64,000 nt of DNA, from NCBI GenBank assembly GCA_001938485.1, contig MQRK01220259.1, positions 20,077 to 84,076 on the forward strand. Reading direction: 5' to 3'. A program made the translations under genes and the position numbers. This DNA comes from Girardia tigrina. Lineage: Eukaryota. Of this stretch, positions 2,856 to 61,230 are shown one piece after another. Position 1 is the stretch's first letter. Every line of letters begins with the position of its first letter. The notes below the pieces were generated by a model. The model had not been told where the DNA came from. It worked only from the letters and a program-made list of their open reading frames with translations, and searched no databases.

Positions 2856-3306
2856 ATAGTAAAATTTGAACGTAACCGATAAACCGTGATTCAGATGATA
2901 GCGAAATTTAAGTTTTTTAATATAAATACGAAAATTTGCAAATTGATACTAAATTGATTTTTAGCAATATAATTAGAAAATAAGTGACAGAAAACGTCAT
3001 TTATCAATTGAATTAATATTTTATTAGTATTTTTATAATTGATTCCAAATATAATTCCATATCAACATTATTAAAAATCGGTGTTGATTAAACAAATGGT
3101 GTACCAGAACAGTTTTCGGTTGATTTCGACGGCTTCCTGGCGTCTTTTAACGAGGACGCTGCACTAATAGAACCGTCTTGTTGCGGGTTATCTAGATAGA
3201 ATTTGAAGTTTTATTTCGGTTCCCCATAATTTTGCATTTTAATGATAGGGGGACCGACAAAAAAACAAACAAACAAAAATATTAGACAAATATATTATAT
3301 ATAGGA
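2856..3306 (-). mobile_element. Non-autonomous Helitron, 5' portion (copy 3)
   Basis: Reverse complement starts TCCTATATATAATATATTTGTCTAA..(TTTG)n..GTCGGTC and is colinear with 46762-47630; interrupted by the LTR at 2855. Confidence 0.75.
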
Positions 3307-22770: not shown

Positions 22771-25347
22771 TATGTTTTAAGAGACTCACGATGTAGCAGT
22801 TTCACTGTTTGCTAAATAAATTAATGATTGAAATTAAGTTGTGATTAAAATAAATTAATGATTAATCGCTAAAGATATTTTGTAATTGAATTTTGTACTT
22901 GAATTCCTTTTTATATTGAAATTTTAATTAATAATCTATCCATCCCTTAAAACTTGCTACTATTTATTTCCAATAAATATAATTTTGAAAGATAATTTGA
23001 AGTGGGAATTATTAGAAATGATAAAATATTTTTTATTTTAAGTTTTCACAAAACAAGGTTGTGAAAGATACATAAAAGTTTTCGAGTATTTTTGTGTTTT
23101 TTATTATTATAAAATTATATTTTACTAGGATTTATTTTAATATTAAACCTCTAAAATAGCTTTTAATTTAATTACGAAGACATAAAGTTATTTAGTTTCT
23201 TTTTCGTCTAGAATTAATTCCTCATCGTGCCCCACCCCGGTAATTGACAGACTGAAACTCTGTTAAATATTAAAATATTTATTTTTTATTAAATAATAAA
23301 TGAAAAATATTTTTTCTCATTTTAAATGAATTTTAAATATTGATTTTTTTTAAAAAACAGTAAAACCAATCTTTAATTTTGTGTTGACGAAATTTATAAA
23401 AAATAAAATAATTATTTTATTTTTATTGTGAAGATTTTTCTACATCTTCGGCATTGATTATAGTTATAATTGGACGCTATAATTGAATGTTAATTTTAAT
23501 TATTATTTTTTTTTTGATTTTTTAATAATTTTTGTTGCAATTAGATTTTTTTATAATTTATTAAAAGATAGAAAAGTTTTTTTTAAAAAGAATTCAGTCT
23601 ATTTTAAGCGTTACTGGCTGTAAAATATCTTTATTCGTGATTAAAGAAAAAAGAAGGATTACCTCCTAGACAGAAATACTAAATTTTCAAAAAATATTAT
23701 GTTTATTGCTTATTCTTTTTAAAGAAAAATTAAGAAAATGAGAAAAGAAATATAATATTCACTATAAAATCTCAAAAATGAAATAGTTAAATGTAGGTAG
23801 ACTATAGTCAAACGCAAGAATAAAAATTATATTCTTGGTTACAAAAAGAGTCTTCTATTGTAATTTTTTAGCATCTTGAATTTCGATTTTTTTGACCAAG
23901 GTTCATCGATAACTTCTTTTTTATTACTTGTACCCAGTTTGCTGTATCTTTTCTGGGTTAATTTTCGGTTTTTGCTTTGTGATGGCCTTTATTTGCTTGT
24001 TATTTGAGTTTAGTAGCACATTTAAAAATTTTAAATAATAAAAGGACTTTTTCATTTCATCTTCTGTTGGTACGAGAGCGTGCGCAGCGTGGTCGCAGCC
24101 AAAATGCTTTGGTGAAGGGGATATGGAGACTCTGGGACGAGGGGAGGGAGAAAAAAATCTGACCCAATCGATCATCGTTATTTTGCTCGTCGCTCCATCT
24201 TTTTCGCTTGTTCCACTGTGAATAATATCCGCTGTCCCGGCCGAGAACAACCCAAACTGACTCGGTCATGCACTCGGTTACTGGACTTCTTGAACAAGTC
24301 CAGCGCCATGTTTGTGATTGGGCAAACACACAGCGGCCGTTCACACCGCCCTTTACCATTATATCACTCTATCATTTTATTACTGCAAATTGGCAATCTC
24401 TTGTAGGGATTCAAGACTGCAAATAAAAATCCCGAAAAGGCATATATCGAATTGATAGTTTCATTAATTTCAATTTCAGACTCTTCACAATTCTTAATCA
24501 TACAGAGAGCTTCAGTATCCCTGGAGATTACTAAATCAAATTTCACTGAATTATTTTGGTTACCAAAATCATTAATGTTTAGAAAATCTTCAGAACATGC
24601 GAACATATAATTGAATTCATTCATTGAATTATTATGGTCACGATAATTATTACTGTTTTTAAAAAAATCCAATGTAAATTTTTTAGAAAAATCGAATTAG
24701 AATCGACAGACATTGTGCACAAATATTTACTCTGCAATCGTCGATTGAATGACGTGATTTAAATAGTCCATTAGATCCTGAAAAAGTCTTGAATAATTTC
24801 GGCGAAATTAACGTGAGATTGATTTTCTTATTAGTTTCCAAGTTTAATTACGATTAATCGATTGAAATAGTTTTTCATTGATAACTAGACCGAAATCGTC
24901 TTCAACTGACTAACCAATTTGTTTGATCGACTTCAATAGTTCCCCAGGCGGATCGGACATCTTCTATTTTGTTTTCATAATTATTTTTTACATGTCGATT
25001 TATAATTGTTTCGGAAAATTGAATTTTTTTATATTTATTATCTTTATTTATTTTTCAAAATATTCCCTCTCCTTACGTAAAGGACAATTATGTTTGAATT
25101 TGAATCTTTCTTTTGCATTTTGTACTCCGGACTGTTTATTCCTTGATTTATTATGCATTGTTTAATTATATATATATATATATATATANNNNNNNNNNNN
25201 NNNNNNNNNNNNNNNNNNNNNNNNNNNNNNNNNNNNNNNNNNNNNNNNNNNNNNNNNNNNNNNNNNNNNNNNNNNNNNNNNNNNNNNNNNNNNNNNNNNN
25301 NNNNNNNNNNNNNNNNNNNNNTTTCATAATTTGTGTCAAAATTATTT

Positions 25348-36339: not shown

Positions 36340-37180
36340 TAAAATGCAAAATTGCGGAGTAACTGGAGTGAATCCATTTAAGAATGTGATCAATCTGGAT
36401 ACCCCGCATCAATACAATTCTGTCGGTAAAGTGCCCTAGCCAAATGACGCCCGGAAGTCGATTGAATCGATCGAAAACCGTACAAGTTATTAAATGGTTA
36501 AATTAACACTAATTTAGAATAATGACGATTTTAACGATTCCTACACGGAATTTCGCGAAAATTTTTATGAAAATTTCAATAAAATACTAATTTATTTGAT
36601 AAATGACCATTTTTATCACTTATTTACTAATTATATTTCTTAAAATCAATTTAGGTTAAATTTGCAAAATTTCGTTATCATTTGATTCACGGTTTGTCGA
36701 TCAAGCACAAATTCCATAAAAAAACATAACCTAGTAGGAGGGAGGGGGACAGAATATAATGACGACGTGTTACTTGGGGGGAGGGGGGTTTAGGAAATGT
36801 AACGTCAAATCGAAATGCTGAAGCATTTAGAGAAAGAATTCTGTGACGAAATTTGACGAGGGAAAGAAGGGATTGGAAATCTGCTAAAATTGCGAGATGT
36901 CATTTTTGTACAGCCCCTAAATGTAAAATAGTGGAGGAACAGTGATTGAATCCATATAAAATTGAGATAACTCTGCATAGTCCGCATCGAGATGGTTCTA
37001 TTTGTATGGCTCCTTTGCCGAAAGGCTCCGGGAGCCGATTTAACTGACTGACTGTTAAATCAACACAGAATTCGAAACAATAAATAATAAATTATAATAA
37101 TTACGATTTAAAAATTAAAACAGAAACTTTCAAAGTTGAAAATTCAGCTCCACCGTCAAATATGACGCGTCTTTTTCTAG
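36340..37180 (+). mobile_element. Non-autonomous Helitron (copy 1, 5'-truncated)
   Basis: Colinear with 46820-47912; 3' hairpin CGTCA-aata-TGACG then CTAG|T; carries an unrelated G-rich insert at about 36730-36920. Confidence 0.85.
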
Positions 37181-37623
37181 TATAAAAATGTCTTATCAAC
37201 AAAAAAAAGTGTCTTATCTATTCAAAAAAATTCTTTTGTCTTATATTAAAACATATCAATCGTAAAAAAACGAAATTCTAACTAATAAGGATCAAAGAAT
37301 AAATTTCTGATGAAATATTACAAAACATGTTTTCGATCGACAAGTTTGAGCAGACTCCAAGTTTCGAGCAGATTCGATCGGGCGATATCTTCGTAATCAA
37401 ATTATGAGCGGTTAATTTAAATTTCCATCTCGCCAGAACAATTTATTATTTTTTTTTATTTAAAAGGTAAAATATTTTAATGTTAATATGCTTATTAAAT
37501 ATTTTAAAATTAAAAATGATATAATAAAACAACTATTAAAAAATCAAATACGTATTTAAAAATAAAATATGTTTTTAATGTTTTTTTAAATATTTTAAAT
37601 ATTGTTAAAATGTTTGTGAAATT

Positions 37624-38188
37624 ATGGTAAAGTTAACAAAGAAGGTGCTGTATCACATTTTGAAGAGTGCAGAAATAACAGAAGAAGAACTTAACACAGC
37701 GGTGGTGCAAGCAGAGGGAATATTAAACTCTACGCCTATTTGTCAAAATAGTAGCGACCCAAAGAACGAAAGTGCGCTGACACCAAATTCCTTTCTGCGA
37801 GTCGGAGACGAGCACGTGGAGTTAAGTTTTGAAACGAAAGATGCTCCCAGTCTACGAAGTAGGTGGCGGAGGATACGAGAGCTGATGGATCACTTCTGGA
37901 AACGATGGAGGCAAGAAGTAGTTATTGCGTGGAGAACGAGATTGAGATGGAGATTGGGAAAGGTGTCTTCACAAAGAGGGGAGCTAGTATGGATACTGGA
38001 CAAACGAGATGCCTTTGGAAAATGGAAACTCGGACGGGTCTTGAAAACATTTGAAGGATCGGATGGGAAGGTCAGAGTCGTTGAAGTCATGATCGATGGT
38101 AAAAAGGCGATGAAGAGCATCACAAAGATTGCACCGTTGGAGCTTCAGGAGAACGTTGATCCTCCCGGGTCGAATCAAAGGGGGAGGA
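37624..38188 (+). mobile_element. BEL/Pao LTR-retrotransposon integrase C-terminus with polypurine tract; the 3' LTR starts at 38189
   Basis: EELNTAVVQAEGILNSTP, LTPNSFL, FWKRWRQE, WKLGRV and GSDGKVRVVEV motifs; AAAGGGGGAGGA|TGTT. Confidence 0.93.
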
Positions 38189-38638
38189 TGTTTCAGAATG
38201 AATTAAAAATTTTATTAATTGAATTCGAAAATAAAAAATTAGATATAACATATATATAAATATGTATATTTGGTTTTTAAAATAATTCGTTAATTAAATT
38301 TGTTTGTTTAATAGGACCTAAAATTAATTTATTATTATTGTTAAATTGAGATCAAAATAAAAAAATTCGTTAGCAATATCAATTTTCTTTTCATTAATTG
38401 AAATTGAAGGTCTAATTTAAAAGAACAAATAACTTTGCCGTTTGGTTATATTTTTAATGTGGATTATTTTATAGACATTTGAAGATAATCATGTAAGGAT
38501 TCCTTAAGGAATTTCTAATTCCTAAGGATTTTCATGTTAAGGAAATTGTGTATCAAAGCAACTGACGAGATTTCAGCACCTACTAAAATTTGTGAAGACA
38601 TTCATGATCAATGGTATGAATTAATGAGAATATTTCAA

Positions 38639-43035: not shown

Positions 43036-43044
43036 GATGAAAAA

Positions 43045-44007
43045 ATGAAAACTTTGAAGATGCTGTGAACAACGACAATTTGAGGACAATGGTGGAAACA
43101 GATCCCCGTACAACAATCAGAGAACTTGCAGATGGGTTGGGCATTAGTCATTCAACAGTCCTGGATCATTTAAAACAACTTGGAAAAATCAAGAAACTTG
43201 ATAAATGGGTTCCGCATGATTTGAATGAAAATCAAGAGAATCGACGCTATGAAATTTGTTCTGCCAATCATCTTCGCAATAAAAACGATCCATTTCTTGA
43301 TCGTATTGTTACCTGTGATGAGAAATGGATCCTGTATGATAACCGACGTCGATCTNNNNNNNNNNNNNNNNNNNNNNNNNNNNNNNNNNNNNNNNNNNNN
43401 NNNNNNNNNNNACCCCGTAAGGTTATGGTGACAGTTTGGTGGTGTGATGCTGGAATCATCCACTATAGTTTCTTGAATCCAGGTGAAACACTCACAGCGG
43501 AGAGGTACTGTCATGAAATTGATGAAATGCCTAAAAAATTGAAAACCCTTTGTCCTGGATTGGTCAATCGAAAAAGTCCCATCCTTCTTCATGATAACGC
43601 TATACCTCATATTTCAAAAGTGACTCTTCAAAAGCTTAATTTGGGCTATGAAACCTTGCTTCATCCACCATATTCACCAGACCTCTCGCCAACGGACTTC
43701 TACTTTTTCAGGCATTTGTATAACTTCCTACGTGAAAAAATGTGCAAAAACCAAAATGATGCTCAAAATGCCTTCCAAGAATTCGTCACTTCGAGAACCG
43801 ATGCATTTTATGCTGATGGAATTAAACAACTTGTTTCTCGTTGGCAAAAATATATTGATGCCAACGGTTCATACTTTGATTAATCAACTTTTGTTTCTGT
43901 GAATTTGCACGTCTTTGAAGTTTGTGTCCTAAAACCGNNNNNNNNNNNNNNNNNNNNNNNNNNNNNNNNNNNNNNNNNNNNNNNNNNGCCATTATTTTTC
44001 GACCAAC

Positions 44008-46020: not shown

Positions 46021-46761
46021 ATCTAGGTATAACAATGTTTTGTTAATTTTTGCTATTTTATGACTTTGTTTTTCATATTTTATTTATTTATAAATAATTT
46101 GAGAAAGAAAATTTAAAAAATCAATTAAATTCAACAAATTTTGTAAATGGAGTTATATTTATGTAAAGTATATTGGTAATTTTCAAATATTTTAAATTAT
46201 TTTTGATTATTACTTCTTATTAATTATAAATCCGTAATAATATTTACTTTTTAAATTGTACAGAATGTAAAATATTTAAGCAGAGACATGACCACTGGCT
46301 TTTCCTTGACCAAAGAGAATTTAAAAGCTCTTTCTTAGGTGTATTAACGAGAACAGTTGTATGACAAATTAGGAACAAATAATTTCCTTTCTCCCCTCAT
46401 TTTCATGCCAAAAATAAAATCTATTTAATCGACGAAAATGCTCAAAATGTAAATTTCTTTGATAAATTTTACTATAATATTATTATTATAGATAGAAGAA
46501 AATAATTTTGTCAATATTTTGCTGTTATCTATTATGAAATAAAAAATCTAAATCTAATATATTAGAGTAAAATAACTGAAAAAAATATTTAATTATAAAA
46601 ATAAATGAATTTAAAAAAATCTATTAAAATTTAAAAAGAGAATTTTCAAGTAAAAATGAAAAAAGATAATAATTATACGGAATTTATTTTTTATAAATAT
46701 GAAAAGAAAATTTGTGTTTAAATTAAAAAAATGATAAATAGATAAAAAGAATTATAAATAA

Positions 46762-47912
46762 TCATGTATATAATATTTGTCTAAAAAGTGTGTTTGTTTG
46801 TTTGTCGGTCACGCTTTTCAATGTGAAATTGCGGACGAACAATGTGAATCCATTTAAGATCGTGGTCAATCTGGATACCCCGCATCCATACAATTCTGTT
46901 GGTGCAGGGCCTTTGCCAAATGACGCCTGCAAGCCGATGAAATCGACCAAAAACCGTACAAGTCGTTAAATGGTTATATTAACACCGATTTCGAATAATG
47001 ACGATTTTGACGATTCCTACACGGAATTTCGTGAAAATTTTTATGAAAATATCAATAAAATACAAATTTATTTGATAAATGACGATTTCTATCACTTATT
47101 TACTTTTTAAGCTTTCTCAATTATTTAGAAGCTTCGTTTGAAATTAATCTTTTATTTATCCTTTTCTTCTGCTTTCTTAGGTAGCAAAGCACTTTAAATA
47201 TTCGGCATCATTCCACCTTGAGAAATAGTAACACCACCTAACAACTTGTTCAATTCCTCGTCATTACGAATTGTTAATTGCAAGTGTCTTGGAATGATAC
47301 GAGTTTTCTTATCTCTGCCAGTGTTACCTGCTAATTCGAGCACTTTAGCAGTCAAATATTCCAGAACTCCAGCAAGATAAACTGAGCACCTTCTCCGACT
47401 CTTTCTGCGAAATTACCTTTTCGTAATTTACGATGCATTTTTCCTACTGGAAATTGAAGACCAGCTCTTGAACTACGACTCTTGGATTGAGTTTTGTAAG
47501 CTTTATCAGATTTTCCGGCTTTTCCGGACATTTGAAAACTTCTTTATTTCTAAAAATCAATTTAGGTTAAATTTGCCAAATTTCGTTATCCTCTGATTTA
47601 CGATTTGTCGGTCAATCTCAAATTTTACTATGATTATATATATGCTGATAAAATGAGAAATATTGGAGGAAAGGTGAGTGAATCCGCATAAAGTTGAGAT
47701 AGCTCTGCATAGTCCGTATCGAGACGATTTTGTCTGTACAGCGCCTTTGCCAAAAGGCCCTGGGAGCCGATTTATTTGACTGACTGTTAAATTAACACTA
47801 AATTCAAAACAATTAATAATAAAGTATAATAATTACGATTTAAAAATTAAAACAGAATCTTTCAAAGTCGAAAATTCAGCTCATCCGTCATATATGACGG
47901 GTCTTTATCTAG
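46762..47912 (+). mobile_element. Complete non-autonomous Helitron carrying H2A (copy 2)
   Basis: A|TC start, (TTTG)n near the 5' end, 3' hairpin CCGTCA-tata-TGACGG, CTAG|T end, no TSD. Confidence 0.88.
47152..47531 (-). pseudogene. H2A: Histone H2A full-length pseudogene
   Basis: [84 protein letters not shown]; frameshift near 47384 and stop at 47194-47196. Absent from the ORF track. Confidence 0.95.
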
Positions 47913-60335: not shown

Positions 60336-60774
60336 TATTAGCAACATCTCAATTTGAGTGTAAACATTTATTAACAACACAAACATTTTCAGTGGCAATT
60401 TCTGCGGGAAGCATCATTCTTGATTAATATGCTTTTGTAGCCATATTAAAATCTTTAAATTAATTAATGGGATAAGAATGATATTAAGTTTTAATTTCTC
60501 AAAATTTGATTGGATAAAAAGGTAATTTTTAAAATAAACATTAGATTTAAAGTATATTAAATTTAATAATTTAAATCCTTTACTAAAAATATTACTAAAA
60601 TTTATAATTATTAAACTTTTAATTAATTCGTATTTAAATATTATTCTCATTAAATTAATTTCATTAGATTTAAGTAGTTAATCAATAACATATCAACCCC
60701 AACTGAGAAGGAGAGTCACCAATCCAAACAGCATACAAATAACAAACTTACAACATTCCGAATTTTCTGTCACA
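60336..60774 (-). mobile_element. Diverged solo LTR-like element, TG...TA ends
   Basis: TGTGACAGAAAAT...TGTTGCTAATA; flanks ACGAC/ATGAC (4 of 5 match). Confidence 0.7.
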
Positions 60775-60789
60775 ATGACAAACTTATGG

Positions 60790-61230
60790 TTGGACCTTCC
60801 AATGTACATTGGAGAGAGAAGTCGTCATCTCCGCACTAGAATTGCTGAACATACTCAATCGAGTAGAAATAGTTCGGTATTGAGCCATATTAAAAGATAT
60901 AAAGGTAATCTTATGGATTACAATAAATATTTTAAAGTGATTTTAAATAATTTTGACACAAATTATGAAAGGATTATTGCCGAAGCATTGTTAATAAAGC
61001 ATCATAAACCATGCTTAAACGTACAAGGTGATTCATCTAATCATATTAAAGTTTTTTTAAAATATCATTAAAAATACTTTTCTTTTTTTTTAAAGAAAAG
61101 AAAAAAAGCATGATTTTGAGACGTATGATGTAATAGTTTTTCAACTATATAAATAGCAATTAATCACTTTCTTTCATTGCACTGAAGATGCCGAAATGGT
61201 GAAACGCGTTTGTATTGGGAATAAATTTAA
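60790..61230 (+). mobile_element. Penelope-like GIY-YIG 3' end with pLTR
   Basis: YIGERSRHLRTRIAEH...EALLIKHHKPCLNVQ. Confidence 0.88.
61176..61215 (+). ncRNA. Minimal hammerhead-like motif
   Basis: TGCA-CTGAAGA-T-GCC-gaaat-GGT-GAAAC-gc-GTT-TGTA. Confidence 0.6.

Follow-up and report, generated by a model that had tools for sequence, protein, structure and literature searches.

The window, a 64,000-nt stretch of the Girardia tigrina genome, contains a complete non-autonomous Helitron that is interrupted by a copy of a histone H2A gene in antisense orientation, together with two other members of the same Helitron family that lack the histone sequence. The features concerned are as follows.

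46762..47912, plus strand: non-autonomous Helitron, complete but interrupted by the H2A insert; termini seen directly
46762..47104, plus strand: 5' arm of the Helitron, containing GTTT repeats; identity to the arms of near-complete sisters 83-93%
47105..47544, minus strand: H2A insert, 440 bp, in place of the 5-bp target AATTA, delimited by the empty sites in the sisters
47106..47538, minus strand: templated part of the insert, with 7 nt of 5' UTR, the CDS and 46 nt of 3' UTR; 93.8% identical over 433 aligned nt to L002
47152..47531, minus strand: H2A pseudogene CDS, full span but broken, from comparison with three stem-loop genes
47539..47544, no strand: 6-nt filler at the mRNA 5' junction, unlike the target and unlike the sampled source leaders
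47545..47912, plus strand: 3' arm of the Helitron, ending in a hairpin (47885-47900) and CTAG (47909-47912); identity to sisters 91-94%
36343..37180, plus strand: empty sister copy, without the 5' ~60 bp and with a ~200-bp insertion inside
2856..3301, minus strand: diverged empty copy that lacks the 3' end; 68% identity across the 5' arm

The Helitron and its family

The ends of the Helitron are those described in the first-pass annotation, with the 5' boundary A/TC at 46761/46762, a terminal hairpin (fold z -4.8 against 200 shuffles) and the 3' boundary CTAG/T at 47909-47912/47913. A 3' hairpin followed by CTAG is a CTRR-type end, as expected of a Helitron, and the element sits between A 46761 and T 47913 with no duplication of its flanks, i.e. 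without a target site duplication (TSD). The family has 5530 candidate sites in the assembly (40 scored), and CTAG/T was present in 23 of the 24 sister loci that show the 3' end. Among the sister 5' ends printed, TC is found in the window copy only; the others begin with a TA-rich run, mostly TAATATAT. By description, the element shares with the lepidopteran Hel-2 a 3' hairpin, a CTAG end, an A/T target, the lack of a TSD and a short tetranucleotide repeat near the 5' end (PMC4344730), although most sisters start TA-rich and not with TC. The family is tied to Helitrons by locus L270, a decayed Rep/Hel element whose start is 82% identical to the 5' 224 bp of the window Helitron; this link comes from one of the seven Rep/Hel regions fetched, and the 3' end of L270 differs from that of the family. 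An open 1518-aa Helitron Rep/Helicase frame is present elsewhere (L264:4948-9501, minus strand; G000:C238346), in an element whose ends do not match the window family. At L272:2528-6444, Rep/Helicase remnants are directly followed by a short member of the family. The arms of the window Helitron contain a 69-bp direct repeat of 75% identity (46870-46938 and 47704-47771), and the insertion in the empty sister, at 36714-36918, is probably another small repeat.

Limits and state of the H2A insert

The junctions of the insert were read directly against the empty sister copies. Both window sisters have the empty site, i.e. the Helitron without H2A, as do 16 of the 24 further loci examined (L007-L030); the window sisters had been annotated as reading straight through the site, which they do, but neither is complete, the first being truncated and the second having no 3' end. 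In contigs from two DNA runs, X1 and X3, the sequence ending at 47104 is joined to that beginning at 47545 with AATTA between them, and the insert is therefore 47105-47544, with five base pairs replaced and nothing duplicated. The nesting proposed previously thus stands, and its limits (about 47105-47543) are corrected to 47105-47544, with the filler and one extra base inside them and AATTA replaced. Neither a TSD nor poly(A) was found at the ends of the insert. Its leader and trailer, given earlier as about 10 and 45 nt, were found to be 7 and 46 nt. On the 5' side of the gene copy, the templated sequence begins 7 nt upstream of the ATG, just inside the transcription start inferred for the source genes, and is preceded by the filler; on the 3' side it stops 1 nt short of the source genes' stem-loop and is followed by one extra A. 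The closest of the source genes, L002, is a stem-loop-bearing H2A gene, and the source genes overall are about 93% identical to the insert.

The H2A copy was described as a full-length antisense CDS. It is antisense and spans the whole frame, but the frame is not intact: it carries a 1-bp deletion at CDS position 148 (~47384) that shifts the frame, a 3-bp deletion at ~47309 and a premature stop (Q114 to TAA, 47194-47196). A contig of run X2, from a second study, crosses the frameshift with 0 differences. Relative to three stem-loop genes, the insert shows 12-15 replacement and 8-9 silent changes (pN/pS 0.40-0.57), and comparison of these genes with one another gives 3-5 silent and 0-1 replacement codon differences. 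The H2A in the Helitron is a dead pseudogene. The X2 contig (depth 2.8) was also considered as evidence of transcription and was rejected, as the RNA nature of the run is a guess and the strand is unknowable; run X21, which comes from another organism, yielded no match. Divergence from the commonest letter is 4.6-5.8% for the insert, an upper bound because the true source may be unsampled, and 2.1-4.9% for the Helitron arms; the values for the insert are not below those for the arms and so do not establish the Helitron as the older of the two.

The composite locus occurs once

Searches of the 1.43-Gb assembly with 71 bp over each junction returned one full-length match apiece (24 of 24 and 1 of 1 candidates scored), and exact gapped patterns also matched once per junction; very common words do not enter into the DNA search and there are 255,254 contigs in the assembly, so that diverged or unassembled copies could escape. 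No other H2A copy was more than 93% identical to the insert among the 40 scored of 90 candidates. Four partial junction matches (86%, query 1-56) proved to belong to another Helitron subfamily, which has a local duplication and no histone sequence. An X1 contig matches 47079-47178 exactly across one junction, with 26 letters on the Helitron side, and an X2 contig matches 47337-47567 exactly across the other, with 23; misassembly of the locus is therefore unlikely. In run X1, where contig depth is not a copy number, the junction contig has a depth of 81, nearby unique flank 48-89 and source-gene contigs 370-530. The first-pass annotation had suggested that a multicopy composite would be a histone-mobilising element, and had itself named single-copy junctions as the finding that would reduce it to a one-off insertion; both junctions are single-copy, and a one-off insertion is what the locus represents.

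Stem-loop histone genes

The source H2A genes have a TATA-like motif, a putative leader of ~15 nt (transcription starts being placed from TATA/initiator-like motifs), a 47-nt 3' UTR, a stem-loop and a downstream element; the last two, seen directly in the source genes, are features of replication-dependent histone genes. Exact matches to the stem-loop number 121 in the assembly, compared with 0 for the reversed control. Rfam at its gathering score gave no match in L004, L262 and L247. Of 12 proteins looked up by exact match only one, the universal H4, was present, and the closest full-length matches of a homologue search were at 87-90%. Almost all stem-loops, whether of the four core histones or at non-histone sites, are preceded at ~6-14 nt by a conserved GAGAA motif, with examples in the 3' UTRs of the stem-loop histone genes L004, L077, L105 and L098. 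Six loci (L075, L078, L081, L094, L095 and L096) have histone-type stem-loops behind sequence without a clear histone frame, most with a motif resembling the downstream element and one, L096, with a weak H2B match; these are possibly non-histone stem-loop transcripts or remnants. The source histone genes are intronless and the usual proof of retroposition, the loss of introns, is therefore unavailable.

Histone copies ending at the foot of the stem-loop

A census of histone copies across the assembly drew on 40 scored matches of 90 candidates for H2A, with extras from the junction search, on 110 stretches out of 150 scored, of 883 Pfam candidates, for H3 and H2B, on the 30 best of 150 scored plus 20 weaker ones for H4, and on 30 of the 121 stem-loop sites. 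It yielded 187 distinct copies and is partial and biased towards conserved ones. With the H4 transposon copies and one duplicate locus set aside, 101 copies had no stem-loop, and 46 of these were dropped before counting (42 below 89% identity to any stem-loop gene, which are variants and old copies, 1 short copy and 3 ending at a gap). The remaining 55 copies represent 51 insertions, or perhaps 50, as L150 and L154 share their 5' flank.

The 3' ends of these insertions fall between -15 and +1 of the stem in 40 of 51, and between -3 and +1 in 29 of these, the other 11 of the 40 breaking at -15 to -4; 10 lie further upstream, 1 lies far downstream and none lies inside the stem. This pattern is unchanged at identity cut-offs from 0.80 to 0.95, and ends at the foot of the stem occur in all four core histones (H2A 12/17, H2B 4/4, H3 22/28, H4 2/2). 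The breaks lie 20-55 nt past the stop codon; it is the stem, rather than the stop, that they follow. The selection itself accounts in part for the lack of ends beyond the stem. Copies with a stem-loop were therefore checked on their own: the downstream element is retained in 63 of 67, and the remaining 4 have more than 140 nt of downstream flank in common, so that none of the copies sampled stops at the mature 3' terminus. The 5' ends lie within 30 nt of the ATG in 33 of 40 tailless copies, as against 6 of 44 comparisons between stem-loop genes. A TSD of at least 8 nt is present in 3 of 40, compared with 1.7% of shuffled pairs; the window copy has none. The window Helitron family was found within 400 nt of only one of the 44 tailless copies tested, the window copy itself. 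At 7 of 29 breaks the sequence goes on with at least 3 letters that match the mRNA tail after the stem (control mean 2.4, P about 0.005, post hoc), and at 12 of 29 no tail letter matched. An open frame is kept in 12 of 40 tailless copies (L005, L053, L057, L106, L111, L119, L134, L147, L187, L192, L228 and L234). Two fold-back copies (L006 and L168) are directly followed by an inverted copy of their own 3' part.

A transposon family carrying H4 sequence

The true multicopy histone-carrying element of this genome is a dispersed, non-autonomous, 2.9-kb terminal inverted repeat (TIR) element that bears H4 sequence (L247:1119-3997, G000:C195901; also L244, L245, L258 and more among L242-L259). It has 8-bp TSDs, a length on which its putative hAT label is based. 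There are 148 candidates, and all 40 scored are at least 90% identical, which gives at least 40 copies. Both ends were found in four loci, with TSD matches of 8/8 in L247 and L258, 7/8 in L245 and an offset of 2 nt in L244. The cargo comprises ~170 nt from the start of an H4 gene (83% identical to L240), the 3' UTR motif, the stem-loop and the downstream element; the H4 sequence is decayed and internally deleted, with frames broken in the copies translated. As the element keeps sequence beyond the mRNA end, it looks like a capture of DNA, in contrast to the window insert. It resembles the Pack-TIRs in its captured gene DNA, its TIRs and its distinct TSDs, a likeness that does not extend to the window insert, and its at least 40 copies compare with 4 multicopy cases in the reference-genome set of a survey (PMC8277862).

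Discussion

The results allow us to propose that this dead, single-copy H2A insert was probably reverse-transcribed from a non-polyadenylated histone mRNA and probably patched into a break in a resident Helitron. Its processed-pseudogene features are ends at transcript landmarks (the start a putative one), the lack of a promoter and a decayed frame, and it has in addition those of a tailless retropseudogene, namely no oligo(A) tail and a 3' end at an internal, A-rich, single-stranded site. The mRNA-sized retrocopy suggested by the first-pass annotation is supported by these ends, which recur in 39 insertions outside the Helitron family. This genome-wide recurrence of mRNA-like ends likely reflects an RNA-copying route and not a transposon that spreads histones.

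For the mechanism, we infer that the template was RNA, that synthesis was primed beside the stem and that end-joining completed the 5' side. A genomic 3' end at a break would anneal to an A-rich, single-stranded stretch of the mRNA immediately 5' of the stem-loop, where priming may occur because the hairpin and its binding protein, which we assume to cover the histone mRNA 3' end in this species, would hide the true end. A retroelement reverse transcriptase or a repair polymerase could then copy the mRNA towards its 5' end, and end-joining would close the other side. The Helitron would have served as the landing site only, without spreading the insert, and the H2A copy would have decayed after insertion. 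A Penelope-like enzyme was considered as the source of the reverse transcriptase and was rejected, the one candidate being a sub-threshold GIY-YIG match at 60682-61068 (E 0.003).

The copy may instead be RNA-derived with its 3' end set in another way, by decay of the mRNA or by a polymerase that was primed on the genuine 3' tail and skipped the hairpin; this overlaps with our reading, and we regard it as a real if unlikely alternative. The 11 breaks at -15 to -4 are in line with this account. The excess of tail matches, at 7 of 29 breaks, suggests that skipping may explain some copies, or that A-rich targets, which would mimic a tail, may do so; against it, 12 of 29 breaks match no tail letter at all.

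It is improbable that the retrocopy entered a donor Helitron and that the composite then transposed at least once, the other copies having been lost, collapsed or left unassembled. The window Helitron keeps both ends, the genome has the intact 1518-aa Rep/Hel frame, insert and arms are diverged to a similar degree, the assembly is highly divided and the same route is known in bats (PMC4224331). Nevertheless, each junction matched once in every search (two per junction), the X1 junction contig has the depth of unique flank and less than that of the source genes, and the intact Rep/Hel element does not have the window family's ends.

Capture at the DNA level, in which Helitron template switching or gap repair would have copied part of a genomic H2A gene, is the other origin that had been put forward for the insert, and we consider it highly improbable. 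The lack of a TSD, the small target deletion and the filler would also fit the DNA-templated gap filling of the Pack-TIR model (PMC8277862). However, both ends of the insert coincide with mRNA landmarks, and the 39 other insertions with such 3' ends lie outside the window Helitron family. Comparisons between genes run past these landmarks, 38 of 44 by more than 30 nt upstream and 44 of 44 beyond the stem, and the only clear case of DNA capture found, the H4 element, retains the stem-loop and the downstream element. An assembly chimera that joined a histone pseudogene to a repeat is the least credible account: no contig reaches 31 letters both to the left and to the right of a junction and run X1 may be the assembly's own sample, but exact-match contigs cross each junction and the two arms, put together, give the family's empty site minus 5 bp.

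A copy of an mRNA patched into a break has parallels in known systems. Tailless retropseudogenes are copied from RNA, have no A tail and end at defined internal positions that are A-rich and single-stranded, and internal priming there is the model for their origin; histone mRNAs are among their sources, the human histone cases comprising 51 5'-truncated and no 5'-full-length copies (PMC5322556). The window insert is alike in its lack of an A tail and its A-rich internal 3' end, and it works like a tailless retropseudogene. We do not file it as the LINE1 type, as the PMC5322556 set requires TSDs and is ascribed to therian LINE1, whereas the insert has a 5-bp deletion instead and its class has TSDs of at least 8 nt in only 3 of 40. 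In addition, 33 of 40 copies here reach the 5' UTR, unlike the truncated human ones, and for each of the four core histones a single 3' landmark, the foot of the stem-loop, predominates. Class 2 templated sequence insertions (TSIPs), for which an RNA or cDNA patch at a break is proposed, lack both a TSD and poly(A) and show a microdeletion and bases without a template; they are described as short fragments from seemingly random sources (PMC5110952). The window insert has all four features and an intact donor, but the copies here cover almost the entire mRNA, come from a single class and share a constant 3' end. Bat Helitrons carry nested retrogenes with poly(A) and TSDs, amplified to 118 copies in four cases (PMC4224331; the word histone is absent from its main text). 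They resemble the window locus in that an mRNA copy lies within a non-autonomous Helitron and is recognised through empty sister elements, and differ in that the window H2A has no poly(A), no TSD and a single copy; gene capture amplified by a Helitron would place the same junctions at several loci, which is not what was found here. In the literature covered, which is incomplete and mostly without subscription papers, we found no description of full-length, TSD-less, stem-loop-bounded histone retrocopies.

The Helitron/H2A locus taken alone is a dead one-off, and the significance of our results rests on the genome-wide class. Tentatively, and with somewhat less than even confidence, we suggest that the copying of entire non-polyadenylated histone mRNAs into DNA breaks, without TSDs, is routine in this animal, and that the shared 3' breakpoint is the footprint of the stem-loop and its binding protein. 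If so, the window insert would be one fossil of this route, and the 12 of 40 copies with open frames could seed stem-loop-free histone genes or sources of histone small RNAs. The class would indicate that the lack of poly(A) does not prevent an mRNA from being copied almost in full, and it offers ~40 natural junctions at which tail-less priming of reverse transcription, and the enzyme responsible, could be tested. Such copies would inflate histone gene counts and would be missed by retrocopy screens that rely on intron loss.

Other features of the window

Remnants of other elements lie in the window, namely a Mariner-type transposase at 43041-43883 and a DUF5641 retrotransposon at 37609-38259, and the sub-threshold GIY-YIG match spans 60682-61071 in a second listing. 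At 24367-24696, 22 kb from the insert and on the strand of the H2A copy (minus), sequence that weakly matches the start of a myosin motor domain (E 1.4e-4) is possibly an exon of a divergent myosin gene.
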